From: Sphingomonadales bacterium
GTDB taxonomy: Bacteria > Pseudomonadota > Alphaproteobacteria > Sphingomonadales > Sphingomonadaceae
Direction: 5' to 3'
NCBI GenBank assembly: GCA_006226685.1
Contig: SBGG01000076.1
Coordinates: 5,111-69,110, forward strand
Length of the DNA stretch: 64,000 bases
Shown: positions 30,616 to 48,027 of the stretch, piece after piece
Position numbering within the stretch: position 1 is the stretch's first letter
Layout: each line of letters begins with the position of its first letter
The notes under the pieces: generated by a model
The model's input: the letters and a program-made list of their open reading frames with translations, nothing else
What the model was told of the DNA's origin: nothing
Databases searched by the model: none
Program-made: the position numbers and the translations under genes

Positions 30616-31643
30616 CCTTCGATCCGACCAAGGACAAGCTCTATATTCAGGACGTCACGCTGCGCGACGGCATGCATGCGGTTCGCCACCAATATGGCAT
30701 CGACCATGTGACGGCGATCGCGAAGGCGCTCGACCGGGCGAAGGTCGATGCGATCGAGGTTGCCCATGGCGACGGCCTTTCGGGCAGCTCGTTCAACTAT
30801 GGTTTCGGCGCGCATACCGACTGGGACTGGATCGGCGCAGTCGCCGAAGTGCTGGAACATAGCGTGCTGACCACCTTGCTGCTGCCCGGCATCGGCACGA
30901 TCCATGATCTCAAACATGCTTATGAAATGGGTGTGCGTTCGGTGCGCGTCGCCACCCATTGCACCGAGGCGGATGTCAGCAAGCAGCATATCGAATATGC
31001 GCGCGGGCTTGGCATGGATGTGTCCGGTTTCCTGATGATGAGTCACATGTCGGAGCCGGAGGCGCTCGCCCAGCAGGCAAAGCTGATGGAAAGCTATGGC
31101 GCCCATTGCATCTATGTGACCGACAGCGGCGGCGCGATGACGATGGATCAATATGCGGCGCGGGTGCAGGCCTATGACCGGGTGCTGAAGCCGGAGACGC
31201 AGCGCGGCGTTCATGCCCATCATAATCTCAGCCTCGGCGTCGCCAATTCGATCGTCGCGGTGCAGAACGGCGCGGTGCGCGTGGACGCCAGCCTTGCCGG
31301 CATGGGCGCGGGTGCGGGCAATGCTCCGCTGGAAGTATTCATCGCCGCCGCCGACGCCTATGGCTGGAACCATGGCACGGATTTGTTCGCACTGATGGAT
31401 GCGGCGGAAGAACTGGTGCGTCCGTTGCAGGATCGCCCGGTCCGGGTCGATCGTGAAACGCTGACCCTTGGTTATGCGGGTGTCTATTCTTCCTTCCTGC
31501 GCCATGCCGAAAAGGCTTCGGCCGAATATGGCATCGACACGCGCGCAATCCTGGTCGAGCTGGGCCGGCGGAAGATGGTCGGCGGTCAGGAAGATATGAT
31601 CGTCGATGTCGCGCTCGACATGATCAAGGAAAAGACCGTTTAG
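30612..31643 (+). CDS. 4-hydroxy-2-oxovalerate aldolase
   Basis: [19 protein letters not shown] and [15 protein letters not shown] are as in DmpG/MhpE/BphI. The gene is translationally coupled to the dehydrogenase gene. Confidence 0.93.
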
Positions 31644-33179: not shown

Positions 33180-33200
33180 TTATGCATACAGTATGCATAA
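33180..33200. promoter_or_regulatory. Operator S1: perfect 21-bp palindrome TTATGCATACAGTATGCATAA between the divergent CarAa-like and hydrolase genes
   Basis: Read directly; it is perfectly self-complementary (10-1-10). The centre TACAGT (33187-33192) lies 17 nt downstream of TTGACG (33164-33169), so it coincides with a plausible -10 element. Confidence 0.6.
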
Positions 33201-33239: not shown

Positions 33240-34025
33240 ATGTGCCGGGAGGTTGAAGTGCCCTATATTGATGCTGGCGAAAGCCGGATTTATTATGAAA
33301 GCCATGGAGAGGGGCCGCCTGTCCTGTTCGCCCATGGCGTGGGCGGGAATCATGCCAGCTGGCATAAGCAGGTTCCCGATTTCGTGAAGGATTATCGCGT
33401 CATCCTGTTCGATCATCGCGCATTTGGTAACTCGTCCGATGTGGAGGAGGCCGGGCAGTCCCGTTATGTGGAGGATATGCTCTGCCTGCTCGATGCGCTG
33501 GAGATCGACCGGGTCATTCTGGTCGGGCAATCCATGGGCGGAGGGACCTGCGCCAATTTTACCTGTGCCCATCCCGAACGGGTCGAAAAGCTGGTCATTG
33601 CCGATTCCCTGATCGGCATCGATGCCCCCGAACCATTAGCTACCATGGTCAGGGAAACGCTCGACCGCGTCTGGAACCTCAGCCAGGCGGAACGGGTGCT
33701 CGGCCCGGTGATGCGGGATGACGATCCCGCGAGCACATTGCTCTATCTGCAGATCGCCAGTTTCAACGCGGTGACGATCCGCACGCTGAAAGGAAGCATG
33801 CCGCGCTGGACCCCGGACCGGCTGGCTGCCACCGGCGTGCCGACCTTGTTCCTTGTAGGGGAGCATGATGTGTTGTTCCCGCCGGAAAATGTACGAATGG
33901 CGCAGGCCATGGTTGCCGGGGCATCTTTCGCCCTGATCGAAGGGGCGGGGCATTCAGCTTATTTCGAGCGCCCCCTTGCGTTCAACCGGCATGTCCGGGC
34001 GTTTCTCTCAGCCGGGGAGGGGTAA
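33240..34025 (+). CDS. Alpha/beta-fold hydrolase
   Basis: 261 aa with HGVGGNHASW and the nucleophile elbow LVGQSMGGG, plus a C-terminal GAGHSAYFERP. An alternative GTG start at 33258 lies 6 nt after GGGAGG. Confidence 0.85.
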   Translation: MCREVEVPYIDAGESRIYYESHGEGPPVLFAHGVGGNHASWHKQVPDFVKDYRVILFDHRAFGNSSDVEEAGQSRYVEDMLCLLDALEIDRVILVGQSMGGGTCANFTCAHPERVEKLVIADSLIGIDAPEPLATMVRETLDRVWNLSQAERVLGPVMRDDDPASTLLYLQIASFNAVTIRTLKGSMPRWTPDRLAATGVPTLFLVGEHDVLFPPENVRMAQAMVAGASFALIEGAGHSAYFERPLAFNRHVRAFLSAGEG

Positions 34026-34030: not shown

Positions 34031-35224
34031 ATGGCGTCCGTTGAAACGGCCGATATCGTCATCGCCGGCGGTGCCGGCATGGGCAGCGCCGTCGCCTATT
34101 TTCTGAAATCGCTCGGGCCGGAAAATCTGCGTATCATCGTCTGCGAACCCGACCCGACCTATGCCCGTGCCGCGACCACTCTGGCGGCGGGCGGTATCCG
34201 GCAGCAATTTTCCACGCCGGAAAATATCGTCATGTCGCAATATGGCTTCGATTTTCTGCGCCGGATTGATGAAGAGCTGGCGATTGACGGGGAAGGCCCG
34301 CAAGTCGACCTGCATGTGGTGCCCTATCTGCATCTCGCTGCGGGGGGCAAGGATGTCGATGGCCTGCGCGAGAGTTTCGAATTGCAGTCGGAACTGGGCG
34401 CCGGGCCGCTCTGGCTGGAGCGGGACGATCTGCGCGCGCGCTACCCGTGGATGACGGTGGACGATATCGATGCCGCGGTTCTCGGCGGCCCGCGCGAAGG
34501 CGTGTTCGATCCCTATGCGATGTTGCAGGCGTTCCGCCGCAAGGCCGTGTCTTTGGGGGTGGAATATCGCCCCGCAGCCGTTACCGGCATCGAACCGGCA
34601 TCGGGCGCCGAGGGCGTGACGGTTGCCCTATCCGATGGTGGCAGGCTGGCCTGCGGGCGAATCATCAACTGCGCGGGGCCTGCCGCCGGGCGGCTTGCGG
34701 CGCTGGCGGGGCTCGATCTGCCTGTTATTCCGGTGCGGGCGCACAGTTTCGTGTTCAAGGTGGAGCAGGCGCCGACGACGGATCTCTTCCCGATCATCGT
34801 CGATCAGGTTCAGTTGCTCAATATCCGCGCGGAAGGCGATATGTTCCTGGCCGGTTCGCCGCGCGAAGGGGAACTGGTCGATGCCGGGGATAATTTCGCG
34901 ATCGATTATGATTTTTTCGATACTGAATTATGGCCGATGCTGGCGACGCGCGTGCCCGCATTCGAAGCGATCCGGATGACCAGCGCCTGGGTCGGTCATA
35001 TGGAATGGAGCCTGCCGGATGCCAATCCGATCATCGGCCCGCATCCCGATTTTCCGGCTATGGTCTTCGTCAACGGTTTTAGCGGCCATGGCGTGCAGCA
35101 CTGCCCGGCGGTCGGCCGGGCGGTGGCGGAACTGATAGTGTTCGGGGCATATCGGTCGATCGACCTCTCCCGTTTTTCCTATGACCGGATCGCCGCCGGT
35201 CAGCCGCTCACGGAGCGGTACTGA
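34031..35224 (+). CDS. FAD-dependent oxidoreductase (DAO family)
   Basis: 397 aa. The N-terminal dinucleotide fold is ADIVIAGGAGMGSAVAYFL, and the overall layout resembles D-amino-acid / sarcosine oxidase beta. The start lies 5 nt after the hydrolase stop. Confidence 0.82.
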   Translation: MASVETADIVIAGGAGMGSAVAYFLKSLGPENLRIIVCEPDPTYARAATTLAAGGIRQQFSTPENIVMSQYGFDFLRRIDEELAIDGEGPQVDLHVVPYLHLAAGGKDVDGLRESFELQSELGAGPLWLERDDLRARYPWMTVDDIDAAVLGGPREGVFDPYAMLQAFRRKAVSLGVEYRPAAVTGIEPASGAEGVTVALSDGGRLACGRIINCAGPAAGRLAALAGLDLPVIPVRAHSFVFKVEQAPTTDLFPIIVDQVQLLNIRAEGDMFLAGSPREGELVDAGDNFAIDYDFFDTELWPMLATRVPAFEAIRMTSAWVGHMEWSLPDANPIIGPHPDFPAMVFVNGFSGHGVQHCPAVGRAVAELIVFGAYRSIDLSRFSYDRIAAGQPLTERY

Positions 35225-36488
35225 CCGGCTGTTCCACGGCGCTGTCGTTGAAACGCGGCAGCGCCAGCAGGATCAGGCAGAGCAGGGTTAACCCCACGGT
35301 CGCAAAGGTGAAGGGGATAGTGTAATTGCCCCAGATGTCGAAGGCCTCTCCGAACAGAAACGGCCCGACCGCGACGCCGATCATGAACACACCGTAGATC
35401 AGGCCGAATATCCGGCCCGATTGTTTCAGCCCGAAATAGCGGCTGACCAGATAACCGATAAAGTCCGATTCGGCGCCCTGACCGACCGCGAGCAGGATGC
35501 TGCCGGCCAGACCGATCGCCAGCACCGGATAGCTGGCCATCAGGAGCGCCCCCGTTGCCGGGAGGGCGAACACGACCACCGCGATATAGGGCGCGAAATA
35601 GCGGTCGAACATATGACCGGCGAGCAGGCGCGCCGGGATGCCGATCAGGGCGTTGAACATGGTGATCGCGGCCAGCGCGCCCGCGCTCAGCCCATGGTCC
35701 GAAAGAAAGGGTGCGATATGGATCGACATGCCCTGAAGGCAACTGGAGATCAGCAGGACCATGACGATCAGCAGCCAGAAAGGGCGGGTGCGTATCGCCT
35801 CTTGCAGGCTCAGGCCGGGAAGCGGTGTCGCCGCCGCGTTACCCGATTCCGCCTTGCGTTCGACCGGGGCTTCCCGGATGCAGAAGATCGAGACGGGCAG
35901 GCCGATCAACAACGGGAACAGCGACAGGCCCCAGAAGCCGCCGCGCCATCCGAACTGTTCGATCATCAATATGGTGAAGGGACCGGACAAGGCCGCGCCC
36001 AGCACTACGCCGGATGAACAGGCGCCCATGGCAAGGCCGCGCGACCGCAGGCGCGCGCCGGAAAACCAGCCCGAAAGCAGGCGGACATAGCCGACGATAG
36101 TGGATCCGGCGCCGAGCGTGCAGATGAGGGCGAAGCCGATGTAAAAGCCGGTGAGGCCGAACCCGTCGATAAGGAAGGGCACGCAGGCGGTGGCGATGCC
36201 ATATCCTGCTTGCGACAGGATCAGCACGATTCGGGTGCCGAGGCGGTCGATCAGTTCCCCCATCAGCGGATTGGCGACCACCATGGTCAGCGCGCCAATG
36301 GAGAGGGAGAGGGCGACGTCCGACCTGCTCCACCCGAATGCGGTTCCCAGCGGGCGCATGAAAAGCCCGGTATTGATCATCACGATGGATATGGCGCAGC
36401 ACATTGTGCCGATGGTGGAAAACAGGACCATCAGCCACGCCGCCCTGTTTGCGGAATCATCTCTGGCCGCCTCGAAAAATCTTCCCAT
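35208..36488 (-). CDS. MFS transporter
   Basis: 426 aa from an internal ATG at 36488 (MGRFFEAARDDSANRAAWLMVLFSTIG...), with about 12 hydrophobic segments and an MFS loop motif (GELIDRLGTR). The upstream 132 codons of the ORF-track entry are Ser/Arg-rich and run through the operator region. Confidence 0.82.
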   Translation of the reverse strand: MGRFFEAARDDSANRAAWLMVLFSTIGTMCCAISIVMINTGLFMRPLGTAFGWSRSDVALSLSIGALTMVVANPLMGELIDRLGTRIVLILSQAGYGIATACVPFLIDGFGLTGFYIGFALICTLGAGSTIVGYVRLLSGWFSGARLRSRGLAMGACSSGVVLGAALSGPFTILMIEQFGWRGGFWGLSLFPLLIGLPVSIFCIREAPVERKAESGNAAATPLPGLSLQEAIRTRPFWLLIVMVLLISSCLQGMSIHIAPFLSDHGLSAGALAAITMFNALIGIPARLLAGHMFDRYFAPYIAVVVFALPATGALLMASYPVLAIGLAGSILLAVGQGAESDFIGYLVSRYFGLKQSGRIFGLIYGVFMIGVAVGPFLFGEAFDIWGNYTIPFTFATVGLTLLCLILLALPRFNDSAVEQPVSTAP

Positions 36489-36516: not shown

Positions 36517-36538
36517 GCATACTGCATACAAATATGCC
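36517..36538. promoter_or_regulatory. Operator-like hexamer array S2 (GCATAC-t-GCATAC-aaa-TATGCC) upstream of the MFS gene
   Basis: Two perfect GCATAC hexamers and one degenerate inverted copy lie 29-50 nt upstream of the MFS ATG. Confidence 0.35.
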
Positions 36539-36621: not shown

Positions 36622-36650
36622 TTGACAATAGCATACTGTATGCAACAAAT
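36622..36650 (+). promoter_or_regulatory. Putative sigma70-type promoter (TTGACA-17 nt-ACAAAT) with operator S3 (GCATACTGTATGC, 36631-36643) inside the spacer
   Basis: A consensus -35 TTGACA lies at 36622-36627. The 17-nt spacer contains the perfect 13-bp palindrome. A weak -10 ACAAAT lies at 36645-36650, about 60 nt upstream of the Rieske oxygenase ATG. Confidence 0.5.
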
Positions 36651-36708: not shown

Positions 36709-37989
36709 ATGTTGACGAGCGAGGAAAATGAGCGACTGACCCGGGTCGGCCCGGGAACGCCCATGGGGGAAGTGTTGCGGCGGTACTGGATGCCGTTTCT
36801 GCTGCCCGAAGAGCTGCCCGAGGCGGATTGCCCACCCGTGCGGGTGCGATTGCTGGGCGAGGATCTGATCGCCTTTCGCGACACGAACGGACGGCTTGGC
36901 TTGCTGGATCGTTTCTGCCCCCATCGCCGCGTTGACCTGTTTTTTGGGCGTAACGAGGAATGCGGCCTGCGGTGTGTCTATCATGGCTGGAAGTTCGATG
37001 TTGACGGTAATGTCATGGACATGCCGGCCGAGCCCGCCAATTCGCCGATGCGCGAGGAAGTGAAGATCAAATCCTACCCAATCATGGAATGGGGTGGTGT
37101 GATCTGGGCCTATATGGGTGATCCGGCGCATCAGCCGCCGCGCCCGCCGGAAATCGAATGGGGTCTGGTGCCTCCCTCGCACCGCAATATCCAGAAGCGT
37201 CTTCAGGAAAATAACTGGGCGCAGGGTGTCGAAGGCGGGATCGATTCCAGCCATGTCGGCATTCTGCATAGCCTGCTGACCCCGCCGGAGCCTGGCAAGG
37301 GGTTCCGCGACCGGCAGCAGGCGGTAGACCCGGCAGTGCCCTATCTCGCCATGGATACCGCGCCCAAATTCTTCATCCGTCCACAGGAATATGGGATGCT
37401 GATCGGTGCGCGGCGCAAGGCGTCGGAAGAGGAATATTATTGGCGCATCACGCAGTTCCTCGCGCCCTTCTACACGATGATCGCGCGCCGGGAGGAGAAG
37501 GGGCCGATTTCCGGCCATGCCTGGGTGCCGATCGATGACGAGAATACATGGACCTTCACCATGTACTGGGATCCGGATCAGCCGCTGGATCAGAGCGAGG
37601 ATTTCGACGCGACCAAAGTCAATGTCGATGTCTGTCCCGATGGTTCCTATCGTCCGATCAACAATCGCGACAATGACTATGGTATCGACCGCTCGTTGCA
37701 GAAGCTGAGCAATTCGACCGGCATTATCGGTATCGGTCTTCAGGATTCGGCGATTCAGGAGACGATGGGGGCCATTGTCGATCGTTCCATGGAAATTCTT
37801 GGTTCCGGCGATGCGGCCATCGTCGCCTGGCGCAAGCTGATGCTGGCCCAGACCCGGGATCTGGAAAAAGAAGGTGACCTGCCGTTGCCGCATAAAACGG
37901 AGCTTTACCGGGTTCGTTCGGCCGGGGTCGTCCTGCCGCGAGGGATAGATTTCGAGGTTGGGGCGAAGGAACGTCTCACCGTTGCCTGA
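36709..37989 (+). CDS. Alpha-only Rieske non-haem iron oxygenase (phthalate-family / class IA-like oxygenase component)
   Basis: 426 aa. Rieske motif CPHRRVDLFFGRNEECGLRCVYHGWKF; iron-site motif EGGIDSSHVGILH. The RBS is GAGGGA. No beta subunit or fused reductase is present. Confidence 0.88.
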   Translation: MLTSEENERLTRVGPGTPMGEVLRRYWMPFLLPEELPEADCPPVRVRLLGEDLIAFRDTNGRLGLLDRFCPHRRVDLFFGRNEECGLRCVYHGWKFDVDGNVMDMPAEPANSPMREEVKIKSYPIMEWGGVIWAYMGDPAHQPPRPPEIEWGLVPPSHRNIQKRLQENNWAQGVEGGIDSSHVGILHSLLTPPEPGKGFRDRQQAVDPAVPYLAMDTAPKFFIRPQEYGMLIGARRKASEEEYYWRITQFLAPFYTMIARREEKGPISGHAWVPIDDENTWTFTMYWDPDQPLDQSEDFDATKVNVDVCPDGSYRPINNRDNDYGIDRSLQKLSNSTGIIGIGLQDSAIQETMGAIVDRSMEILGSGDAAIVAWRKLMLAQTRDLEKEGDLPLPHKTELYRVRSAGVVLPRGIDFEVGAKERLTVA

Positions 37990-38072
37990 GATCCCGTTCG
38001 GGTCATGGTCGGATCGTCAGCCGGAATGCCGGCGATGATCCTTCCCAACATGCTGACAGGGAAGGGTTGGCA

Positions 38073-39317
38073 ATGAGCGATAAGCGGAATGACATACCGG
38101 GGCATGGGCCGGAGGGCCTGATCCGTCGCAGGGATTTCGTATCGGGCCTGCCTCTGGCTCTTGCCTTGGGCGCATCGTCCATGGCAAGGGCGGCGGTCCG
38201 TCCGCCCTTGCCTCGTCCGGCGCATGTCGTCGTGGTCGGCGGCGGCATTATCGGGGTGACGATCGCGTGGCATCTGGCGCGACGGGCCGTGCGGGTGACG
38301 GTGCTGGATCCGACCCCCGGGCAGGGGTGCACTCAGGGCGCGTTTGCGATGTTGATCGCCGGACAACCGGAAGGCGGCTCCGAGGAATTCAACGCGCTCT
38401 ATGTCCGGGCGGTGGCGGACTGGCGGCGGTTTCAGGCGGAAACGGGCAATGTCCTGCCGATTCAGTGGGGCGGCACCGTCAACTGGGCGGCGCCCGGCGA
38501 CCGGGCCGATACCATGGCGGCCGACTGGCGGCGGCTTGTATCCTGGGGCGTGGGGGCGGAAGCGATCGCGGCCGGGGATGTTGCCCGGCTGTGTCCCGGC
38601 GCGTTGCCGGGTGAATTCGGCGCCGGTTATTTCATGCCCGATCAGGGTGCCGTCGATATTGATGGCGTCATGACCGTGTTGCAGGCGCAGGCGGTACGGG
38701 CTGGTGTCGAGTTCCGGCGCATGTCGGTGGTCGATCTGCCTCGGGGCGAAGATGGCCGGGCGACCATCATGACGGAGCATGGTCCGATTGTCGCGGATCA
38801 TGTGATTTTGGCGGCTGGTGCCGGGACGACCGCATTGGCATCCCGTCTGGGTGCGCATATCCCGCTTGACCTTGTTTCCGGTACGCTGGCGCATAGCAAG
38901 CCGATGGAGCCGGTCCTGCATCGTGTGCTCAACGGGCCGCTGGGATCGATCAAGCAGAATCCCAACGGAACGATCGTGACCGGGCTCGATTATGCGCCCG
39001 GCGCCAGCGGCACCGATATCAGCGAAGCCTATGGTCGGAAATTATTCGCCATTGCGGCGCGGACTGTCCCGGCATTGAAGGATGCGGTGCTGGACAAGAT
39101 GACGCTCGGCTATGTTCCAATCCCGGCGGAAGGGCGAATGCCGATCGTCGGACCGCTGGCGCCGGCGCCCAACGTCTATGTCGCGGCGATGATGAGCGGA
39201 GTGACCATGGCGCCGCTCATGGCCCGTATGATCGCGGCGGAGGTGGTGGACGGCATTCGCGTCGACATGCTCGCGCCCTATCGGCCGGACCGCTTCAACC
39301 CGCAATGGAATGCATGA
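38073..39317 (+). CDS. FAD-dependent oxidoreductase (DAO family) with a predicted twin-arginine (Tat) signal peptide
   Basis: The N-terminus has LIRRRDFVSGLPLALALGASSMARA (RRxF Tat motif plus an AxA cleavage site). This is followed by the FAD fold HVVVVGGGIIGVTIAWHLA. The ORF-track start at 38067 is TTG; ATG 38073 is preferred. Confidence 0.78.
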   Translation: MSDKRNDIPGHGPEGLIRRRDFVSGLPLALALGASSMARAAVRPPLPRPAHVVVVGGGIIGVTIAWHLARRAVRVTVLDPTPGQGCTQGAFAMLIAGQPEGGSEEFNALYVRAVADWRRFQAETGNVLPIQWGGTVNWAAPGDRADTMAADWRRLVSWGVGAEAIAAGDVARLCPGALPGEFGAGYFMPDQGAVDIDGVMTVLQAQAVRAGVEFRRMSVVDLPRGEDGRATIMTEHGPIVADHVILAAGAGTTALASRLGAHIPLDLVSGTLAHSKPMEPVLHRVLNGPLGSIKQNPNGTIVTGLDYAPGASGTDISEAYGRKLFAIAARTVPALKDAVLDKMTLGYVPIPAEGRMPIVGPLAPAPNVYVAAMMSGVTMAPLMARMIAAEVVDGIRVDMLAPYRPDRFNPQWNA

Positions 39318-39379
39318 ACATCGGTAACGCAGGGCCGGCCCTTGCCGGTGCCGCAAATGGACAGTGACGAGGTGAAATA

Positions 39380-40366
39380 ATGGCAAAAATCGTTCTTGGA
39401 ATTGGCAGCTCGCACAGTCCGGCGCTGTTGATGGAGCCGAAGGCGTGGCTGCGTCGCGGTGAAACCGATGATCAGAAATATCACGCCCTCTATGATTTTG
39501 ACGGGGTACGCGTGCAATATGATGAATTGCTCGCCAAGGCGCCCGCCGGTCTGCTCAAGGAAATCGAACCGGAGATCATGGATCGGCGGTACGCCGCGAA
39601 TGAAGCGGGTATCGCCGCGGTTGCGGCCAAGCTGAAGGAAGTCGATCCCGATGTCATCCTGATCATCGGGGATGACCATAAGGAAGTGTTTCAGGACGAC
39701 AACATGCCCGCGCTGTCCGTCTATTGGGGGGATACGCTCCCCTATAAGGCGCAGGGACTGATGAAATGGCCCTATGCCGATGATCTCAAGGCCGATGTCT
39801 GGTATCCGCAGCAGGAGGCCGATTATCCGGTTGCGTCGGATCTCGCGCGCCGGCTGATCGGTGATCTGATCGAACGCGGGTTCGATCCGGCCCACTCTAA
39901 ATTCTATCCGGAAGGGCAGGGGATGAGCCATTCCTTCGGATATATTTATCACCGGATCATGACCGAAAAGGTCTGGCCGGTCATTCCGATCACCCTCAAT
40001 ACCTATTACCCGCCGAATCAGATCACGCCTCGCCGCGCCTATCAGCTGGGTCGCACGTTAAGGGAAACGGTCGAAAGCTGGCCGGAAGATTTGCGCGTCG
40101 CGGTCATGGCGACGGGCGGTCTGAGCCATTTCGTCGTCGATGAGGAATTCGACCGGGCCTATATCGAATTGTTGCGTAACGGCGATGAGGAAGGGCATGC
40201 TGCGCTGCCGCGTGAAAAGCTGCAATCCGGCAATTCCGAATTCCGGTGCTGGACGACGCTTGCGGGTGCGGTGCAAGGCATGGCATTCGACCTGATCGAT
40301 TATGTGCCCTGTTATCGGTCCCCGGCGGGAACAGGATGTGGCATGGCCTTCGCAACCTGGGAATGA
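39380..40366 (+). CDS. Class III extradiol ring-cleavage dioxygenase, single-subunit LigB-family protein
   Basis: 328 aa with LigB-type blocks GIGSSHSP, ILIIGDDHKEVF, MSHSFGY and ATGGLSHFVVDEEFD. The RBS is GAGGTGA. Confidence 0.82.
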   Translation: MAKIVLGIGSSHSPALLMEPKAWLRRGETDDQKYHALYDFDGVRVQYDELLAKAPAGLLKEIEPEIMDRRYAANEAGIAAVAAKLKEVDPDVILIIGDDHKEVFQDDNMPALSVYWGDTLPYKAQGLMKWPYADDLKADVWYPQQEADYPVASDLARRLIGDLIERGFDPAHSKFYPEGQGMSHSFGYIYHRIMTEKVWPVIPITLNTYYPPNQITPRRAYQLGRTLRETVESWPEDLRVAVMATGGLSHFVVDEEFDRAYIELLRNGDEEGHAALPREKLQSGNSEFRCWTTLAGAVQGMAFDLIDYVPCYRSPAGTGCGMAFATWE

Positions 40367-40411
40367 ACATCCTGTTGCCGGGCGGCGGATGAAGAAGGAG
40401 GAACGGGTATC

Positions 40412-41107
40412 ATGGGTGAATGCGAAACCGGCTGGAGTGTCACGCCGCCTGTGGTGCCGGGCCTTGCCGTGGAGGGAAGCGATGCCCGTTTCCCGGTCGG
40501 CCGGATATTCTGCGTCGGCCGCAATTATGCCGACCATGCGCTCGAAATGGGTGCGGACCCGGTACGGGAACCTCCGTTCTTCTTCATGAAGCAGTCCAGC
40601 GCGTTGCTGACCGATGGGGCGGCCTTGCCCTATCCGCCGCGCACGGCCTCCCTGCATCACGAGGTCGAACTGGTTGTTGCGATCGGCACGGGCGGTTCGG
40701 GGATCGCTCCGGCGGACGCGCTTGATCATATATTCGGCTATGCGGTCGGTATCGACATGACCCGCCGCGACTTGCAGGACGAAGCGAAGGCGAAGCGCAG
40801 GCCGTGGGATGTCGCCAAGAGCTTTGACGGCGCCGCGCCCGTGGGGGTGATCGTGCCGGGACGGACTATGGCAGGCGACATCGGGATCAGCCTCAGTGTC
40901 GACGGCGCGGTGCGCCAGACAGGCAAGTTGGGGGCGATGATCTGGTCCGTGCCGGAAATCATCGCCGAACTGTCCACCTATCAGGCGCTTCTGCCCGGCG
41001 ACCTGATCTTCACCGGCACGCCAGCGGGTGTCGGCGCGGTCGAAGCCGGGCAGGTCATGCACGCCGAAATCGAAACCTTGCCATCGCTTTCCGTCCGCGT
41101 CGCCTGA
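40412..41107 (+). CDS. Fumarylacetoacetate hydrolase (FAH) family protein (fumarylpyruvate hydrolase / oxaloacetate decarboxylase-like)
   Basis: 231 aa with RIFCVGRNYADHALEMG, FFFMKQSSAL, HHEVELVVAIG and GDLIFTGTPAGVG. The RBS AAGGAGGA is strong. Confidence 0.88.
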   Translation: MGECETGWSVTPPVVPGLAVEGSDARFPVGRIFCVGRNYADHALEMGADPVREPPFFFMKQSSALLTDGAALPYPPRTASLHHEVELVVAIGTGGSGIAPADALDHIFGYAVGIDMTRRDLQDEAKAKRRPWDVAKSFDGAAPVGVIVPGRTMAGDIGISLSVDGAVRQTGKLGAMIWSVPEIIAELSTYQALLPGDLIFTGTPAGVGAVEAGQVMHAEIETLPSLSVRVA

Positions 41108-41156: not shown

Positions 41157-41178
41157 TGCATACCGTATTCAGAATGCA
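41157..41178. promoter_or_regulatory. Operator-like hexamer array S4 (TGCATAC-c-GTATTC-a-GAATGC) between the FAH and aldehyde dehydrogenase genes
   Basis: It matches the 15-bp palindrome TGCATACNGTATGCA at 14 of 15 positions and carries one additional degenerate hexamer. Confidence 0.45.
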
Positions 41179-41205
41179 ATTGATCGTGAAGGCAGGCATA
41201 GCATC

Positions 41206-42690
41206 ATGACCATGGCCGATGCCCGCGAGGAGATAGGCCGGGAAATGGCGGCGCTGCGGCAGCCCCATTTTCGCGAGCAGGCCTATGTCGATGGCCGTTG
41301 GATCGGCGGTGGCGGCGCTCGTCTGCCTGTCTTCAACCCCGCAGATGGCAGCCTGATCGGCACGGTTCCTGCCTTGACCGGCGAGCATGTCGAGGAAGCC
41401 ATTACTGGCGCCCGGCGCGCATTGGCGGACTGGCGGGGATTATTACCGCGTCAGCGTGCCGATATCCTGCTGTGCTGGCATGAACTGATTCTGCGCGATA
41501 CCGATATATTGGCCGCACTGATGACGATGGAGCAGGGCAAGCCGTTCGAGGATGCTCGCGGCGAAATATTCTACGGCGCCGGCTTTGTTCGCTGGTTTGC
41601 CGAGGAGGCGGGCCGCACCTATGGCGAGGTGGTGCCGCCGCATCTGCCCGACCGAAAGATGTTCGTGCAGAAGGAGCCGCTGGGCGTGGTGGCGCTCATC
41701 ACGCCGTGGAATTTCCCGTCGGCGATGCTGACGCGCAAGGCCGCCGCCGCGCTGGCGGCCGGATGCACGGCCATTGCTGTGCCGTCGATGGAAACACCCT
41801 ATTCGGCGCTTGCGCTTGCCGTGCTGGCCGAGGAGGCCGGCATTCCGCCCGGTGTATTCTCGGTGCTGACCGGTGATCCGGAAACGCTGGTCAACCCGTT
41901 GTGCGACAGCGCGGTGGTGCGCGGCCTGTCCTTCACCGGATCGACGGCGATCGGCCGTCTGCTGCTGGCGCGGTGCGCGCCGACGGTGAAGCGGGTGTCG
42001 CTGGAACTGGGGGGGCATGCTCCGTTTCTACTGTTCCCGGATTGCGACATCGAACTGGCGGCCGAGGCGGCAGTGGCGGCCAAGTTTCAGACATCGGGTC
42101 AGGATTGCCTCGCCGCGAACCGCATCTATGTGCATGAAAGTATCAGCGACGCATTTGCCGAGGCCTTCGCCCGGCGTGCCAACGCGCTGACGGTGGCGCC
42201 GGGCTTTGCGCCTGAGGCGGAGCTGGGGCCGCTCATCAACGAACGTGCCGTGGCCAAGGCGATCGAGCATATCGAAGATGCGCTGGAGAAGGGCGCGCGG
42301 CTGGTTGCCGGCGGCGGGCGGCACGCGCGCGGCGGCCTTTTCTTCGCGCCGACCGTGCTGACCGACGTCGTTGCATCGATGAAGATCGCGCAGGAGGAAA
42401 CCTTTGGCCCGGTCGCGGCGATCCTTTCCTTCAGCGATGAGGAGGAGGTTATCCGCGCCGCCAATGACAGCGAATATGGCCTTGCCGCCTATGTGTTCAC
42501 CCGCGATGTCGCGCGGGCGTGGCGGGTCACGGATGCGCTCGAATATGGGATGGTCGCGGTCAACACCGTGAAGCTGACCGGGCCGCCCATTCCTTTTGGC
42601 GGAATCAAGCAATCGGGTCTGGGCCGCGAGGGTTCGCGCCATGGCATCGATGAATATCTGGAACAGAAATATGTGTGCATGGGGCTGTAA
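41206..42690 (+). CDS. NAD(P)+-dependent aldehyde dehydrogenase (succinate-semialdehyde dehydrogenase-like)
   Basis: ALDH blocks ITPWNFP, LELGGHAP (catalytic Glu), FQTSGQDCLAANR (catalytic Cys) and EETFGPV. Start taken at ATG 41206; the ORF-track start at 41143 is TTG and would run through the operator. Confidence 0.9.
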   Translation: MTMADAREEIGREMAALRQPHFREQAYVDGRWIGGGGARLPVFNPADGSLIGTVPALTGEHVEEAITGARRALADWRGLLPRQRADILLCWHELILRDTDILAALMTMEQGKPFEDARGEIFYGAGFVRWFAEEAGRTYGEVVPPHLPDRKMFVQKEPLGVVALITPWNFPSAMLTRKAAAALAAGCTAIAVPSMETPYSALALAVLAEEAGIPPGVFSVLTGDPETLVNPLCDSAVVRGLSFTGSTAIGRLLLARCAPTVKRVSLELGGHAPFLLFPDCDIELAAEAAVAAKFQTSGQDCLAANRIYVHESISDAFAEAFARRANALTVAPGFAPEAELGPLINERAVAKAIEHIEDALEKGARLVAGGGRHARGGLFFAPTVLTDVVASMKIAQEETFGPVAAILSFSDEEEVIRAANDSEYGLAAYVFTRDVARAWRVTDALEYGMVAVNTVKLTGPPIPFGGIKQSGLGREGSRHGIDEYLEQKYVCMGL

Positions 42691-42721: not shown

Positions 42722-44348
42722 ATGAGTAAGAAGAAAGTGGCGACGGCTGTTGTCGAGGCACTGCGGAATATGGGGGTGCGCCATGTCTTTGGTGTGCCGA
42801 GCGGCGGCTGGGTCGATTATATGGAGGCATTGCGGACCACGGACGGCATTGATTTCATCCTCGCGACGCATGAGGGCGGCGCGGGCATGATGGCCGATGT
42901 CTGTGGGCGCCTGACCGGTGTGCCGGGGGGTTTGCTTCGGTACTTTCGGGCCGGGGGCGACCAACCTTGCCACCGGTGTCGGCGAGGCGTTGCTCGATCG
43001 TTCGCCGATGATCGCCTTTTCCGATGAAATGCCGGAGGCGATGCGGTCGCGCGTGACGCAGATGGGGATCGACCATCAGGCGCTGTTCGCACCGCTCACC
43101 AAGAAGACGACGCGGCTGCGCGCCGATGCGGTCGAAGGGATATTGAGCGATGCGGCGCGGGTGGCGCTGTCCGGTCGGCCCGGCCCGGTTCATGTGGGTC
43201 TTCCGGTCGGCCTGTCCGCCGAGGAATCGACCGGGCCTGCGGTGCCCATGGCCGGTGCGGACATGGTGCCGGGCGCGGATCCGGCGTTGTTGCAACAGGC
43301 CGTGGCCCGGCTGGAAGCGGCGGAGCGGCCGGTGCTCGCGGTCGGCCTCGGTGCGGTTCAGGCCGGAGTGGGCGACAAGGTGCGTGCGCTGGCCGAAAAG
43401 TTCGGTCTTCCCGTCGTCCTGACGCCGATGGCCAAGGGCATGGTGCAGGAGGATCACCCTTGTTACGCCGGGGTGTTGTTCCATGCACTGAGCAACATGG
43501 TCGGGGAAACCCACAGCCAGGCGGATCTGGTGATTGCGGTCGGTTATGATCCGGTCGAGTTTAATTTTGAAGCCTGGATGCCGCAGGCGCCCCTGCTCAA
43601 CCTCGATATCGTCGATGCCGACATCGACCGCACCGAATATCCCGATGTGGTCGATGTTACCGGCGATATATCGGCCTCGCTCGATGCGCTGCTCGGGGCC
43701 GGGGGAATGAAGAAGCAGTGGGATCTGGAGGCGCTGGCCCGGCGCCGTGCCGCGATGTTCGCCAAAATGGCGCCGGACAATGAACGGCTCGGGCCGACAA
43801 AGGTACTGTCGATCTTGCGCGATGTCCTGCCCGAAGAGGGCATCATGGCCTGCGATGTCGGCGCGCATACCCATTTGATCGGGCAGTTGTGGCGCACCCC
43901 CGCACCGAAGCGGCAGCTCATGACCAATGGCTGGTCGACCATGGGGTTCGGCATCCCGGCGGCTATCGCGGCGAAGCTGTGCCGCCCGGATGTGCCGGTA
44001 TGCGCGGTTGTCGGTGACGGCGGTTTCCTGATGACCGTGGGCGAACTGGCCACGGCCGTCCGCTACAAGGTGCCGGTCGTGATTTTGTTGCTGACCGACA
44101 ATGATCTCGCGCTGATCCGCATCAAGCAGGAAAAGAAGGGCAACCCGATTTACGGGACGCCGGTACGGCCGGAAGGCGCAATCGGCGGTGACAATATGTT
44201 CGGTGTCCCGGTTCGTTCGGTGCGGGATGCGGATGCGTTGCGACAGGCGTTGACCGAGGCCTTTGCAAGCGACGGGCCGACAATCGTCGAGGCGATCGTG
44301 GACAGTCGCGAATATGACGGGCTGGTCCTGAAAAAAGATAAGGACTGA
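42722..44348 (+). pseudogene. Thiamine-diphosphate-dependent enzyme (acetolactate synthase large-subunit-like), interrupted by a +1 frameshift in a G6 run
   Basis: The N-terminal ThDP domain is split between ORF 42722..43027 (VFGVPSGG...ILATHEGGAGMMADVCGRLTGVPG) and ORF 42918..44348 (VCFGTFGPGATNLATGVGEALLDRSPMIAFS...). Removing one G from GGGGGG (42925-42930) gives the continuous sequence RLTGVPGVCFGTFGPGATN. The C-terminal ThDP motif is GDGGFLMTVGELATAVRYKVPVVILLLTDN. Confidence 0.8.
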
Positions 44349-44575: not shown

Positions 44576-46945
44576 ATGACATATCCGAATCAAGCAACAG
44601 GCCGCGCGACGGCCCGAAAAGGAAGTGCCTGCATCAAATCCGCCCTGCTGGCCGGTGCCCTGTTCATGCCGCCCATGTCGGCGGCCTGGGCGCAGGGAGC
44701 CTCTCAGGGTGATGGAGAAATCGTCGTTACGGCCAACCGGCGCGGGGAACAGACCCTGCTGGATGTTCCGCTGGCCATCGATGCCTATTCCGGCAAGACC
44801 CTGTCGGACTATAAGATCAATTCCGTTCAGGATCTGACCAAGCTGACGCCTTCGCTCAACGTCGTCAATCTGGGCGCCACCCAGCAGCAGATCGTGGTGC
44901 GCGGTATTTCGTCCAGCGTTGGCGCCACCACTGGCGTCTATATCGATGAGGCGCCCCTCATCGGCCCCTTCAACGGCAATGTCGCAGGCGACGGCACGCC
45001 CAGCCTTCGCCTGATCGACGTGGATCATGTCGAGGTGCTCAAAGGGCCGCAGGGCACCCTGTTCGGTGCGGGGTCCATGGCCGGCACGTTGCGCGCGGTT
45101 CTGAACAAGCCTGACCTGACGAAAGTCGAAGGCGCTGCCGATGCCTCCTGGGCGGCGGTCAAGGGAGGGGATCCGCTCTTCAAGGGATCGGCGGTCGTCA
45201 ACCTGCCGGTCGTGGCCGATACACTCGGTGTTCGCGTCGTCGGCTGGACCGAGCAGGGCGGCGGCTATATCGACAAGCAGTTCGTTACCGGCGTTCGCGA
45301 CAAGAACAGCAACGACCTCAACCTTTATGGCGGCCGCATCATGGCGCGCTGGCAGGCTTCCGAGGATCTGACGATCGACCTGGCCGCCAATTATCAGCGG
45401 ATCAAGGTGGGCGGGCCGCAATATGTGACGGAATCGGTCGGCTATCAGGCAACGCCCCCCAATCAGGGCCGTTATGCCAATTTCGACCCCGTGGCCGAAC
45501 GGTATCGCGAAACCTATCAGCTCTATTCGATCGTGGCGGATTATGATGTCGGCGTCGGCAACATCGTTGCCAGCGGCAGCTATGGCCGCAAGACTCTGCT
45601 CGATGTTATCGATACATCCGGTCAGGCCTGCTTCTTTGGGCTGTGCTCTGGAACTTTCGCCTATCCGACCGCCTTTACCAGCAAGATCGGCTTCCGCGAT
45701 TATACGGCGGAACTGCGGTTCTCGTCGAAATTCGACGGTCCGTTCCAGATTGTTGCGGGCGGCTATTATCAGAATGATCGCCGCACCTTTAAAGGCGCGA
45801 CCATTGTAACCGATCTGGATACAGGCACGCTGCCGTGCGACACCTATGCGCAATGCGTGTCCGCCGGGATGGTCCAGCCGGGCTTCGGCAACAATGTCGT
45901 GGTGTTCTCCAATGCCTCGCGGTTTACGGTCAGCCAATATGCATTCTACGCGCAGGCCGACTATCAAATCGTGCCGACCCTGACCGCGACCGTGGGCGCT
46001 CGCTATTTCCACGCGCGCCTCACCGATCAGTTGACGGATGAGCAGGCGGTCTACCCCGATTTCATCTTCGGGGATGTCAGCGTGCCTTCCACCGGCCCCA
46101 AGACCAAGGCCAATCAGAGCCGCCCGACCTTCAACTTCTCGCTGATGTGGAAGCCGGAGAAGGATGTCAGCCTATATGCGCGCGCCGCATCCGGTTTCCG
46201 TATCGGCGGCATCAACAACAGCGCGGCCGTGGCGGAACAGGGCGGGATTTCCATCCCGACCAGTTTCTCGCCCGACAAGCTCTGGAACTATGAGGTCGGC
46301 GCGAAATTCTTCCTGCTCGACCGCGCGGTTTCTTTCGACCTGTCGGCCTATCATATCGACTGGAAGGATCAGCAGCTCAACGGCCTTGCCCAGGGTGTCT
46401 TCAACTATCAGTTGAATGCCGGCCTGACCAAGACGAACGGCTTTGAAATCAGCACGGACATCCGCCCGTTGCAGGGGCTGAGCCTGGGGGGCAGCCTGAC
46501 CTATGTCGATGCCAAGCTGAAATCGGATCTCCCGTCGGACGTGGTGCTGGGCGGTACGCCTGGCATGAATGGCGACCGGGTGCCTTATGTGCCGCGCTGG
46601 TCTTTCTCCGGCCGGGCGCAATATGAGCATCCGCTTTCCGCGACGGTCGACGGCTATCTCCAGACCGATTTCAATTATCGCGGTTCGTCCTATACCCAGT
46701 TCCGCCCGGTTACCGCGGCGGATCAGGTTGCGGGCATCCCGGATAATTATTTCACGCGCATACCGTCCTACTTCCTATGGAATGCGCGTGTCGGCGTTCG
46801 GATCGATCAGGTCGACATCAGTGCCTTCGTGCAGAACATCACCAACAAGTTTGCGGTGGTGGGGGCCAAGGCCGATGCCAATGAGGTGCGCTATTATACC
46901 GCGCAACCGCGCTCGATCGGGCTCAGCCTCTCGACCAAATTCTGA
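44576..46945 (+). CDS. TonB-dependent receptor embedded in the aromatic catabolic cluster
   Basis: The signal peptide ends ...PPMSAAWAQG. TonB-box-like GEIVVTANRR; plug motifs IDEAPLIG and VEVLKGPQGTLFGAGSMAGTL. The barrel ends in a terminal Phe (LSLSTKF). ATG 44576 lies 7 nt after AAGGGGA; GTG 44570 is too close to the RBS. Confidence 0.92.
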   Translation: MTYPNQATGRATARKGSACIKSALLAGALFMPPMSAAWAQGASQGDGEIVVTANRRGEQTLLDVPLAIDAYSGKTLSDYKINSVQDLTKLTPSLNVVNLGATQQQIVVRGISSSVGATTGVYIDEAPLIGPFNGNVAGDGTPSLRLIDVDHVEVLKGPQGTLFGAGSMAGTLRAVLNKPDLTKVEGAADASWAAVKGGDPLFKGSAVVNLPVVADTLGVRVVGWTEQGGGYIDKQFVTGVRDKNSNDLNLYGGRIMARWQASEDLTIDLAANYQRIKVGGPQYVTESVGYQATPPNQGRYANFDPVAERYRETYQLYSIVADYDVGVGNIVASGSYGRKTLLDVIDTSGQACFFGLCSGTFAYPTAFTSKIGFRDYTAELRFSSKFDGPFQIVAGGYYQNDRRTFKGATIVTDLDTGTLPCDTYAQCVSAGMVQPGFGNNVVVFSNASRFTVSQYAFYAQADYQIVPTLTATVGARYFHARLTDQLTDEQAVYPDFIFGDVSVPSTGPKTKANQSRPTFNFSLMWKPEKDVSLYARAASGFRIGGINNSAAVAEQGGISIPTSFSPDKLWNYEVGAKFFLLDRAVSFDLSAYHIDWKDQQLNGLAQGVFNYQLNAGLTKTNGFEISTDIRPLQGLSLGGSLTYVDAKLKSDLPSDVVLGGTPGMNGDRVPYVPRWSFSGRAQYEHPLSATVDGYLQTDFNYRGSSYTQFRPVTAADQVAGIPDNYFTRIPSYFLWNARVGVRIDQVDISAFVQNITNKFAVVGAKADANEVRYYTAQPRSIGLSLSTKF

Positions 46946-48004: not shown

Positions 48005-48027
48005 TGTAAGTGCTTAGGGAGAAACAA

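Follow-up and report, generated by a model that had tools for sequence, protein, structure and literature searches.

The window analysed here is a stretch of 64,000 nucleotides from a Sphingomonadales bacterium, a Sphingobium sp. (contig SBGG01000076.1 of assembly GCA_006226685.1, positions 5,111 to 69,110 of the forward strand), and the system in question is a group of four genes at positions 36709-41107, considered together with the catabolic genes that surround it. All four lie on the forward strand and encode, in order, a Rieske oxygenase of 426 amino acids (IphA-like; 36709-37989; Rieske PF00355 and LigXa_C PF19301 domains, motifs CPHR and CVYHGW), an oxidoreductase of the DAO family, dependent on flavin adenine dinucleotide (FAD) (DAO1; 38073-39317; PF01266, E 8e-49), a single-subunit member of the class III extradiol dioxygenase family of 328 amino acids (LigB-328; 39380-40366; PF02900, E 2e-19) and an FAH-family hydrolase of 231 amino acids, of the acylpyruvate/fumarylpyruvate hydrolase type (FAH231; 40412-41107; FAA_hydrolase PF01557, E 1e-55). 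Families were read directly from Pfam and NCBIfam scans. The genes are separated by gaps of 83, 62 and 45 nucleotides, and a site scan found no terminator-like sites in the three gaps. The open reading frame (ORF) of DAO1 begins at a TTG at 38067 in the ORF list, and in the nearest metagenome-assembled genome (MAG), GCA_050252595.1, the gene is annotated from the ATG at 38073; contig JBFWKQ010000002.1 of this MAG matches the window at 98.0% identity across 21 kb. A first-pass annotation, made from the letters of the window, had described four tightly spaced, same-strand genes of these families, and all its ORFs, gaps and domains were confirmed.

The predicted promoter region of the unit spans positions 36622-36650 of the forward strand and is composed of a TTGACA element (36622-36627), an exact 13-bp palindrome immediately 3' of it (GCATACTGTATGC, 36631-36643, 0 mismatches) and a weak -10 candidate, ACAAAT (36645-36650). 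We infer this promoter, since a consensus promoter scan made no call at these positions. The short gaps, the lack of terminators and the palindrome agree with the earlier proposal of an operon behind an operator-overlapped promoter, and the four genes are probably one transcription unit, controlled through the operator. Two more genes follow on the forward strand: an aldehyde dehydrogenase resembling succinate-semialdehyde dehydrogenases (41205-42690; PF00171, start as in the MAG annotation), which scores 614 bits with TIGR01780, under the cut-off of 646, and a thiamine diphosphate (ThDP)-dependent, acetolactate-synthase-like enzyme (42722-44348; TPP_enzyme N, M and C domains). A second copy of the palindrome, with 2 mismatches (GCATACCGTATTC, 41158-41170), is located between the FAH231 and aldehyde dehydrogenase genes; the operators called S3 and S4 in the first-pass annotation correspond, respectively, to the exact copy upstream of the unit and to this one. 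Both genes that had been placed beyond S4 were found, the ThDP gene in a frameshifted state: one surplus G in a G-run near 42945 splits it into two frames in the window, while it is intact, with 541 amino acids, in the 98%-identical MAG. The frameshift is either a sequencing or assembly error or the mark of a recent pseudogene.

The AlphaFold2 model of LigB-328 has a pLDDT of 82.7, and its top fold matches are DesB and LigB (TM 0.66-0.68, probability 1.0, 20-23% identity), with aminophenol dioxygenases ranking after them; at the sequence level LigB is matched at E 2e-12, with about 23% identity. Residues H12, H100, H250 and E287, plus H184, are invariant or nearly so across 12 orthologues, and in an alignment with a canonical paralogue encoded in the same window (49666-50481) they correspond to its SH, DH, GGLSH and E positions. 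The distribution of Fe(II)-ligand and catalytic-histidine roles among these residues is presumably the one of the LigAB structures. By its fold and by its metal and catalytic residues LigB-328 is a class III (LigB-type) extradiol dioxygenase, with the corresponding predicted activity. It features an insertion of 40-60 residues after the first histidine, all NCBIfam models score under their cut-offs on it, and no LigA-like ORF adjoins 39380-40366. On the last two grounds, together with the identity of about 23%, LigB-328 was rejected as a protocatechuate 4,5-dioxygenase of the LigAB type. Three cysteines, C290, C311 and C320 (in RCW, VPCYRS and GTGC[GA]M), are also invariant in the 12 orthologues and missing in the canonical paralogue of the window; they may possibly form a structural metal site or confer redox sensitivity.

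Homologues of LigB-328 number in the thousands, nearly all of them unnamed, and the family comprises 216 representative clusters at E < 1e-30. Its members are found in Sphingomonads, Caulobacteraceae, Burkholderiales and Gammaproteobacteria and, more distantly, in SAR202-type Chloroflexota. The names that they carry in databases are generic or mutually inconsistent: automated names such as '3-O-methylgallate 3,4-dioxygenase', 'protocatechuate 3,4-dioxygenase' and 'DODA-type' are unsupported by any orthology found. No characterised orthologue was found, the best solved relatives, LigB and DesB, being only 20-23% identical. Annotated plasmids hold no close homologue, the best one reaching 39%. 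A relative at 30% identity is carried by plasmid pCAR3 of Novosphingobium sp. KA1, in an uncharacterised cluster (225445-244353, locus L088 in our numbering), where it is annotated as hypothetical. Encoded around it are an alpha/beta hydrolase, an alpha/beta Rieske dioxygenase, a ferredoxin, a short-chain dehydrogenase/reductase (SDR) and a TonB receptor, together with an aldehyde dehydrogenase and a ThDP-binding protein. The last two form the pairing seen in the window as well, and the group gives the impression of another uncharacterised cluster.

The IphA-like protein fits the alpha-only type of the phthalate family, as previously annotated: it has a Rieske CxH...CxxH cluster and a catalytic domain of the LigXa_C type, and no beta-subunit gene (Ring_hydroxyl_B) was found in the island of catabolic genes described below. 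Its best solved relative is the isophthalate dioxygenase IPDO-KF1 of Comamonas testosteroni KF1 (9INA), at E 1.3e-110. In the paper on that structure (9INA), R234 and H257 are reported to bind the carboxylates and V178 to act as a steric gate. The equivalents of these three residues are kept in the IphA-like protein and in all its orthologues of at least 61% identity, and for this reason its substrate should carry two groups, anionic or polar, placed meta to each other. Other pocket positions differ (L198 to V, F249 to R, I294 to V, F333 to I); the arginine at the F249 position was considered as a substrate clue and dropped, because orthologues vary there. The candidates for electron transfer to the oxygenase are a Rieske-type ferredoxin (48010-48345, forward strand) and a ferredoxin reductase with Pyr_redox_2 and Reductase_C domains (48383-49669, reverse strand), about 10 kb downstream. 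The likeness to the Comamonas isophthalate system (IphA/IPDO, reductase IphD, dehydrogenase IphB) lies in the alpha-only phthalate-family oxygenase and in the shared R234, H257 and V178. The differences are that the likely donors are here a Rieske ferredoxin and a reductase of the glutathione-reductase type (Pyr_redox_2), instead of a reductase of the PDR (phthalate dioxygenase reductase) type, that domain scans and the MAG gene table reveal no IphB or IphC homologue in the island, and that the gene is accompanied by an uncharacterised LigB-type dioxygenase. A match of the Rieske gene on the Arthrobacter plasmid p2MP was set aside, as it sits in an ordinary iph-like set.

FAH231 has as its solved relatives the putative fumarylpyruvate hydrolase 4MAQ (E 8e-70), 6J5Y (E 4e-66) and the acylpyruvase FAHD1 (E 5e-45). 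It is thus nearest to proteins deposited as fumarylpyruvate hydrolases, a likeness to the NagK-type enzyme of the gentisate pathway; unlike that pathway, the island has no family match suggestive of a gentisate 1,2-dioxygenase or a maleylpyruvate isomerase in the Pfam and NCBIfam scans or in the MAG gene table. Two of the four proteins do have characterised relatives of clear similarity, namely isophthalate dioxygenase (E 1e-110) and the fumarylpyruvate/acylpyruvate hydrolases (E 8e-70), a point which counts against the first-pass interpretation.

The four-gene unit is embedded in a catabolic island of 24.6 kb (27985-52591), running from an IclR gene to a GntR gene, whose content was established by Pfam and NCBIfam scans and from the gene table of MAG GCA_050252595.1. 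The promoter regions of the island are marked by the palindrome GCATAC-N-GTATGC (in its extended form TGCATAC-N-GTATGCA, 13-15 bp). Besides the two copies described above, three copies with 0-1 mismatch lie in the divergent intergenic region between the genes of a CarAa-like oxygenase and an alpha/beta hydrolase (33184-33196), between those of an aspartate-dehydrogenase-like enzyme and the ferredoxin (47990-48002), and upstream of an operon of hydrolase, dioxygenase and reductase genes (51641-51653). A copy with 2 mismatches, GCATACTGCATAC (36517-36529), falls in the divergent region between the Rieske gene and a gene for a transporter of the major facilitator superfamily (MFS), and a weak, operator-like one, with 3 mismatches, is found at 52721, upstream of the GntR regulator gene. 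All seven copies (33184, 36517, 36631, 41158, 47990, 51641, 52721) are intergenic within the island. Related loci of Sphingomonas, Novosphingobium, Herbaspirillum, several Caulobacteraceae and one Burkholderiaceae strain also contain an ATAC-N-GTAT palindrome, which recurs in loci L001, L006, L007, L009, L013, L017, L021, L033, L034, L036 and L087, from Alpha- and Betaproteobacteria; as the same palindrome recurs in several genera, the operator is regarded as an old feature of the gene set. A single repressor appears to control the island through the palindrome. The likeliest candidate is the GntR/FCD-family regulator encoded at 51815-52591 on the reverse strand (GntR and FCD domains), whose gene co-occurs with the same palindrome in other loci and whose binding is predicted. 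CarR of pCAR3 was tried as its homologue and discarded, as no match was found on that carbazole plasmid. The earlier description of the operon as a self-contained pathway has consequently to be replaced: it is one unit of a 24.6-kb regulon, which includes a complete carbazole-type upper pathway.

This upper pathway begins with a CarAa-like homotrimeric Rieske oxygenase (31922-33103, reverse strand; Rieske and Aromatic_hydrox domains), which matches carbazole 1,9a-dioxygenase at E 7e-126 and is 46-48% identical to the products of the CarAa genes on pCAR1 and pCAR3. Among solved structures, its CarAa-family matches (CarAa, OxoO) act on N-heterocycles. Twelve ligand or pocket residues of CarAa are kept (G178, H183, I184, H187, L270, V272, F275, Q282, E284, F329, N330, D333), and two pocket positions are changed (I262 to H, A259 to T); His262 and Thr259 would be compatible with a distal ring bearing a polar substituent. 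The remaining components are a two-subunit, CarBaBb-like LigB-type dioxygenase on the reverse strand, made of the canonical catalytic subunit of 271 amino acids (LigB271, 49666-50481) and a small LigA-like subunit (50483-50857 at most), a meta-cleavage-product (C-C) hydrolase similar to HsaD and BphD (50770-51612, reverse strand), the ferredoxin and reductase already mentioned and, on the forward strand at 28864-31643, a MhpD-like 2-oxopent-4-enoate hydratase, an acylating acetaldehyde dehydrogenase and a 4-hydroxy-2-oxovalerate aldolase of the DmpFG type. The full set of car components is therefore found in the island, and the same upper-module set recurs in Pandoraea, Caballeronia, Variovorax, Sphingomonas and Caulobacteraceae. 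The carbazole sets of Pseudomonas resinovorans CA10 and Novosphingobium sp. KA1 (carAaBaBbC, carAcAd, carDEF) share with the island all component types and most of the CarAa pocket residues. They differ in that the CarAa-like protein is only 46-48% identical, the island genes are scattered over 24 kb, and the island has no anthranilate dioxygenase, the IphA-like/LigB-328 module being there instead.

Two further proteins of the regulon have to be introduced, both encoded outside the four-gene operon. AspDH-like (47096-47914, reverse strand) is an NAD(P) dehydrogenase with NAD_binding_3 and Asp_DH_C domains, which scores 333 bits with the NCBIfam aspartate dehydrogenase equivalog PRK13302, above its cut-off of 253; its solved relatives match only at E 5e-22, and a weak GFO_IDH_MocA match is seen at its N-terminus. 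The catabolic context suggests that its substrate differs from L-aspartate or iminoaspartate. Abhyd (33240-34025, forward strand), identified by Pfam and NCBIfam scans, is a PcaD/esterase-like alpha/beta hydrolase, nearer to 3-oxoadipate enol-lactonase, esterases and lactamases than to C-C hydrolases. Neither 2-(acetamidomethylene)succinate hydrolase nor NicD was retained as a close relative, both being absent from the 49 solved relatives listed at E <= 1e-12. Directly after Abhyd lies the gene of a second DAO flavoprotein (DAO2, 34031-35224, forward strand; domain scan), so that the DAO gene noted earlier beside a hydrolase was indeed found there.

In order to evaluate the conservation of the neighbourhood, a GTDB species-genome scan with the LigB-type protein was used to collect 80 loci, more loci were added through exact-protein look-ups, and partner genes were located by tblastn with all island proteins. 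The synteny set consisted of the 37 independent loci with a LigB-328 orthologue of at least 60% identity; as some of them end early, partner absences are lower bounds, and in Betaproteobacterial loci presence and absence were judged within 10-kb flanks. The first-pass annotation had asked whether the block is a conserved cassette, and it is not: the order Rieske-DAO-LigB-FAH was found only in the 98%-identical MAG. AspDH-like accompanies LigB-328 most constantly, in 30 of the 37 loci, followed by Abhyd (29, directly downstream in 17) and IphA-like (23, directly upstream in 10). Ferredoxin and ferredoxin reductase genes are present in 19 and 18 loci, the C-C hydrolase in 17, LigB271 and the GntR regulator in 16 each and CarAa-like in 13. 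Lower counts were obtained for the ThDP enzyme (9), the aldehyde dehydrogenase (8), DAO1 (7), an MHPCO-like monooxygenase (5), FAH231 (4) and DAO2 (4). In an Alcaligenaceae locus (L022) the genes for AspDH-like, ferredoxin, IphA-like, ferredoxin reductase, LigB-328 and Abhyd are contiguous, in this order. The unit worth studying is hence the conserved trio or quartet (IphA-like, LigB-328, AspDH-like, Abhyd) with its operator-defined regulon, rather than four adjacent genes. Cultured strains with the cluster include Sphingomonas crocodyli, S. mali NBRC 15500, Pandoraea pneumonica LMG 31114, Caballeronia arvi LMG 29317 and Variovorax spp. (davisae/jilinensis).

The loci take two forms. The short form, found in Beta- and Gammaproteobacteria and some Alphaproteobacteria, holds a LysR gene, LigB-328 followed by Abhyd, AspDH-like and an NMT1-type ATP-binding cassette (ABC) transporter, and additionally either an FAD monooxygenase or SDR and RraA-like genes. 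The long form corresponds to the short one plus the Rieske system and, usually, car-like genes. In Sphingomonads and Caulobacteraceae the clusters are extended by DAO genes, FAH231, the TonB receptor, the aldehyde dehydrogenase and the ThDP enzyme; DAO1 and DAO2 occur in alphaproteobacterial loci. FAH231 is found with LigB-328 in L006, L021, L030 and L032 only; it adjoins it in the window and in L030, and comes after LigB-328 and Abhyd in L032. A similar place is held in Variovorax-type loci by RraA-like aldolase/decarboxylase genes. In five loci without a Rieske gene, AspDH-like lies beside the MHPCO-like FAD monooxygenase, which matches 2-methyl-3-hydroxypyridine-5-carboxylate oxygenase (MHPCO) at E 3e-104. 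These loci (L002, L003 at 1865-2986 on the minus strand, L018, L019 and L023) come from Xylophilus, Alloalcanivorax, Stutzerimonas azotifigens and Salinicola, and also hold LigB-328, Abhyd and an NMT1-type ABC transporter; NMT1/THI5-type binding proteins border the LigB-328 module.

The N-terminus of DAO1, RRRDFVSGLPLALALGASSMARA (RRRDFV...ARA), is a signal of the Tat (twin-arginine translocation) type, with a twin arginine, a hydrophobic stretch and an AxA site; it was recognised by reading the sequence for these three elements. An RR, RRR or RRH motif with a hydrophobic stretch was present in all seven DAO1 orthologues inspected (L006-L009, L013, L017, L087), and no signal sequence was seen in the Rieske and LigB proteins of the unit. 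DAO1 is likely periplasmic, in a pathway that is otherwise cytoplasmic, because the signal is conserved, and is thus probably not a step between hydroxylation and ring cleavage, as it would be in the order Rieske, C-N oxidation by DAO, cleavage and FAH hydrolysis proposed in the first-pass annotation. It reaches none of the NCBIfam cut-offs. The genes for aldehyde dehydrogenase, ThDP enzyme and DAO1 are contiguous and co-oriented in three Caulobacteraceae loci (L007, L009, L013), a run pointing to the stepwise conversion of a 2-amino or 2-oxo acid into an aldehyde and then into an acid. No electron-acceptor gene, such as one for a cytochrome c, was seen near DAO1.

Taken jointly, these data are best explained by considering the operon as a unit of a GntR-controlled island, in which a carbazole-type upper module is combined with an IphA/LigB-328 lower module. 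This explanation is put forward tentatively, its chances being judged slightly short of even. The regulon would probably serve a two-ring, probably nitrogen-containing, aromatic acid, and the lower module a meta-dicarboxylate-like, probably amino- or aza-aromatic acid. A biaryl or tricyclic compound would have its first ring opened by the upper module, with release of an aromatic acid and 2-hydroxypenta-2,4-dienoate, the latter to be taken over by the hydratase, the aldolase and the acetaldehyde dehydrogenase. The IphA-like enzyme, through the shared ferredoxin and reductase, would oxygenate the meta-dicarboxylate-like, probably amino- or aza-substituted acid, and LigB-328 would perform an extradiol cleavage of the resulting vicinal diol. 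AspDH-like and Abhyd would act on the cleavage product, either by oxidation of a hemiacetal or hemiaminal followed by hydrolysis of a lactone, amide or ester, or by amide hydrolysis and conversion of an imino acid. FAH231, or an RraA-like enzyme in other lineages, may then split a terminal intermediate of the acylpyruvate or oxaloacetate type to give pyruvate. DAO1 would be a Tat-exported accessory, probably oxidising an amine or amino-acid function of the substrate or of a precursor in the periplasm, before uptake.

Several observations weigh against this scheme. The nearest solved relatives of LigB-328, LigB and DesB, act on nitrogen-free carboxy-catechols, and its distant homologues (34-39%) adjoin PobA, RraA/4-carboxy-4-hydroxy-2-oxoadipate (CHA) aldolase and amidohydrolases, which a nitrogen-free reading fits equally well. 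The position of AspDH-like beside an FAD monooxygenase argues against a simple role as cis-diol dehydrogenase. Full Betaproteobacterial clusters occur without DAO, FAH231, aldehyde dehydrogenase and ThDP genes within their flanks, and these four components are therefore dispensable for the core chemistry. Loci L033 and L034 contain the IphA module, the GntR gene and the operator with no car-like genes within their flanks, so that upper and lower modules could serve separate substrates. The palindromes with up to 3 mismatches are 21, compared with a mean of 11.4 in shuffles, a modest excess; the operator signal rests on the copies with 0-2 mismatches and on their positions. The case for co-transcription of the four genes consists of short gaps and missing terminators. 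Finally, no characterised orthologue of LigB-328, AspDH-like, Abhyd or DAO1 was found, and for this reason the order of the reactions is one that we infer, as are the functions assigned to FAH231, DAO1, Abhyd and AspDH-like, the identity of the substrate and its nitrogen.

The alternative that survives best, although unlikely as a whole, is nitrogen-free: the lower module would be a non-orthologous version of the route from isophthalate through protocatechuate to 4,5-cleavage, and the DAO genes would be unrelated add-ons. The IphA-like enzyme would produce a carboxy-catechol, LigB-328 would replace LigAB, AspDH-like would stand for LigC, the Gfo/Idh/MocA-type dehydrogenase of 4-carboxy-2-hydroxymuconate-6-semialdehyde (CHMS) (hemiacetal to pyrone), Abhyd for the lactone hydrolase LigI, and an RraA-like or FAH enzyme for the aldolase/oxaloacetate decarboxylase LigK. 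Indeed, the protocatechuate 4,5-cleavage pathway (LigAB, LigC, LigI, LigJ, LigK) and the DesB/DesZ dioxygenases share with the island the succession of enzyme types, from extradiol dioxygenase through NAD(P) dehydrogenase and hydrolase to aldolase/decarboxylase, and LigB and DesB are the top relatives of LigB-328 both in sequence and in fold. The differences from these systems are that LigB-328 is 20-23% identical to LigAB/DesB, is a single subunit and has the N-terminal insertion of 40-60 residues, that the island dehydrogenase is aspartate-dehydrogenase-like and not of the Gfo/Idh/MocA family, and that Abhyd has an alpha/beta fold, not that of an amidohydrolase. Also in favour are the isophthalate carboxylate-binding residues kept in the IphA-like protein, the proximity of Abhyd to enol-lactonase, esterases and lactamases rather than to C-C hydrolases, the weak GFO_IDH_MocA match of AspDH-like, the RraA-like genes of Variovorax-type loci, the PobA and CHA aldolase genes near distant homologues and the Betaproteobacterial core clusters devoid of DAO genes. 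This variant is contradicted by the score of AspDH-like above the aspartate dehydrogenase equivalog cut-off and by the close relationship of the alternative hydroxylase of five loci to a pyridine-ring oxygenase. Moreover, no candidate for a 4-oxalomesaconate (OMA) hydratase or tautomerase was found in the island, and the pairing of DAO2 with Abhyd and the presence of DAO1 under the common operator are left unexplained. To our knowledge, NMT1-type ABC transporters have not been reported for protocatechuate uptake, which also counts against it. For the core trio taken by itself, the nitrogen-free variant fits nearly as well as a nitrogen-containing substrate.

The presence of nitrogen in the substrate, proposed in the first-pass annotation on account of two DAO flavoproteins, is plausible and falls short of proof. 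It is made so by AspDH-like exceeding its cut-off, by the MHPCO-like enzyme, by DAO1 and DAO2, by the relatedness to CarAa and OxoO, by the NMT1/THI5-type proteins and by the enzyme classes shared with the degradation of 3,4-dihydroxypyridine. A bolder, rather improbable reading is that the trio of LigB-328, AspDH-like and Abhyd constitutes a widespread, undescribed ring-cleavage route for carboxylated nitrogen aromatics, whose substrates may be pyridine dicarboxylates such as dipicolinate, or amino- or aza-isophthalates derived from carbazole- or carboline-type compounds. The LigB-type enzyme would open a dihydroxypyridine-like or aminocatechol-like ring, and the nitrogen would leave as an imino acid, to be converted by AspDH-like. 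If this were true, the island would be the first full two-ring pathway of such kind.

It is more doubtful still that the operon degrades a monocyclic pyridine carboxylate, either a pyridine dicarboxylate such as dipicolinate (an aza-isophthalate) or a hydroxypyridine carboxylate, through Rieske oxygenation, opening of a dihydroxypyridine by the LigB-type enzyme, hydrolysis of an amide, conversion of an imino acid and hydrolysis of an acylpyruvate. Genes of the car type would then belong to a separate pathway which merely shares ferredoxin, reductase and regulator, as loci L033 and L034 would allow; in the window, however, car-like units and the four-gene unit bear the same operator. The MHPCO-like enzyme of five loci agrees with a pyridine substrate, and so does the parallel with the PydA/PydB/KpiD route. 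In the 3,4-dihydroxypyridine route a LigB-family dioxygenase (PydA, PF02900), an alpha/beta hydrolase and an FAH-family 3-formylpyruvate hydrolase act together (PMC7356986), and FAH231 adjoins LigB-328 in the window, with Abhyd in the same regulon. The enzyme classes of the 3,4-dihydroxypyridine/4-hydroxypyridine pathway (PydA-PydB of Rhizobium TAL1145, KpiA-KpiC-KpiB-KpiD of Arthrobacter IN13; PMC7356986, PMC3637104) that match those of the island are the hydroxylase, the ring-opening dioxygenase, the alpha/beta hydrolase and the FAH-family acylpyruvate hydrolase, plus an ABC transporter. In contrast with that pathway, the hydroxylase is here a Rieske oxygenase with dicarboxylate-binding residues, and AspDH-like comes in as an additional, constant partner. 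LigB-328 lacks the PydA signature motifs DDHFENH and EWICGM, having DDHKEVF and GTGCGM in their place, and its 150 best representative relatives lack them too; as they occur in none of the 269 family sequences collected, LigB-328 was rejected as an orthologue of PydA (3-hydroxy-4-pyridone dioxygenase).

Dipicolinate was considered because it is an aza-isophthalate and because its repressor, DipR, is of the GntR/FadR type. DipR binds GWATAC hexamers, from which the half-sites of the island operator differ by one base, and the dipA site TGAATAC-C-TTATACA agrees with TGCATAC-N-GTATGCA at 11 of 14 positions. The GntR/FCD protein of the window shares with DipR the DNA-binding arginines R63 and R67, at identical positions, while the effector residues H196 and H218 are not kept (Y196 and S218), and the window contains no GTATAC hexamer. 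Membership of a dipicolinate dip cluster was accordingly rejected, the half-site resemblance being retained as a lead only. DipD has been described as a novel monooxygenase, and all scanned island genes have some family assignment other than DipD. The dip pathway reportedly (Mu et al. 2022) starts with DipD, an oxygenase outside the known oxygenase families and not a Rieske enzyme.

The self-contained linear pathway of four genes, with steps in gene order, which was the model of the first-pass annotation, is now very unlikely: gene order, short gaps and the shared promoter speak for it, and the FAH family assignment suits a diketo-acid hydrolase, but the order is unique to the strain, DAO1 and FAH231 are missing from most LigB-328 loci, DAO1 has a conserved Tat signal which the Rieske and LigB proteins lack, and the constant partners AspDH-like and Abhyd are ignored. 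That four unrelated catabolic genes were recently brought together by rearrangement, with no common pathway, is hardly credible; although gene order varies strongly among genomes and the window differs from the nearest MAG by 2% divergence plus 6 indels, one of them disrupting the ThDP gene, the operator is shared by the island promoter regions and conserved across genera, and the same families co-occur repeatedly in two proteobacterial classes.

As regards the remaining known systems, vitamin B6 degradation (MHPC oxygenase, 2-(acetamidomethylene)succinate hydrolase) resembles the loci analysed here in the MHPCO homologue that accompanies LigB-328, Abhyd and AspDH-like in the five Rieske-less loci, and in the succinate-semialdehyde-dehydrogenase-like gene of the window. 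It differs in that the window has no MHPCO homologue, that 2-(acetamidomethylene)succinate hydrolase is not among the 49 listed solved relatives of Abhyd, and that the B6 routes described so far include no step for an extradiol dioxygenase. The routes for kynurenate, beta-carboline-carboxylate and 3-hydroxyanthranilate, and those of the L-DOPA type, each cover only part of the gene set and are not claimed. With six systems compared, no described pathway covers the set, and the view that no named pathway fits stands for the core enzymes. Literature searches returned nothing useful on aspartate dehydrogenases within extradiol clusters, on ring cleavage of dipicolinate or on beta-carboline degradation.

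The cluster is built from known superfamilies; what is new is the unassigned dioxygenase subfamily and its unusual dehydrogenase partner. If the model of a GntR-controlled two-module island holds, a large, uncharacterised subfamily of ring-cleaving dioxygenases would have fixed and unusual partners, one being an AspDH-like enzyme where a diol or semialdehyde dehydrogenase is usual, the other an esterase-like hydrolase. Since the module is abundant in bacteria of soil and fresh water, its substrate is probably a common natural aromatic acid for whose catabolism a gene assignment is lacking. The significance would be higher if the substrate proved to be an abundant nitrogen heteroaromatic. The 13-bp operator and the candidate repressor offer a way in, as the effector of the repressor would name the substrate.

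The other genes of the island and its borders can be described briefly. The left edge is formed by an IclR-family regulator (27985-28800, reverse strand; domain scan); directly to its left an alpha-amylase-family gene (26357-27994) marks the point where carbohydrate metabolism genes begin. The MFS transporter divergent from the four-gene unit occupies 35208-36431 on the reverse strand (MAG gene table), and a TonB-dependent receptor, with Plug and TonB_dep_Rec domains in the MAG annotation, lies at 44576-46945 on the forward strand. Beyond the GntR gene, an ORF of 639 amino acids (52747-54666) has its zinc-alcohol-dehydrogenase domains confined to residues 332-637, and the true start of the gene is probably much further in, leaving positions 52750-53700 with no assigned function. 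In some of the related loci (L086 of Caballeronia arvi, L087 of Caulobacteraceae, L091 and L012), nitrogen-handling genes are found near the module, coding for asparaginase, amidase (beside a tannase-family gene), gamma-glutamyltranspeptidase and a class I/II aminotransferase.

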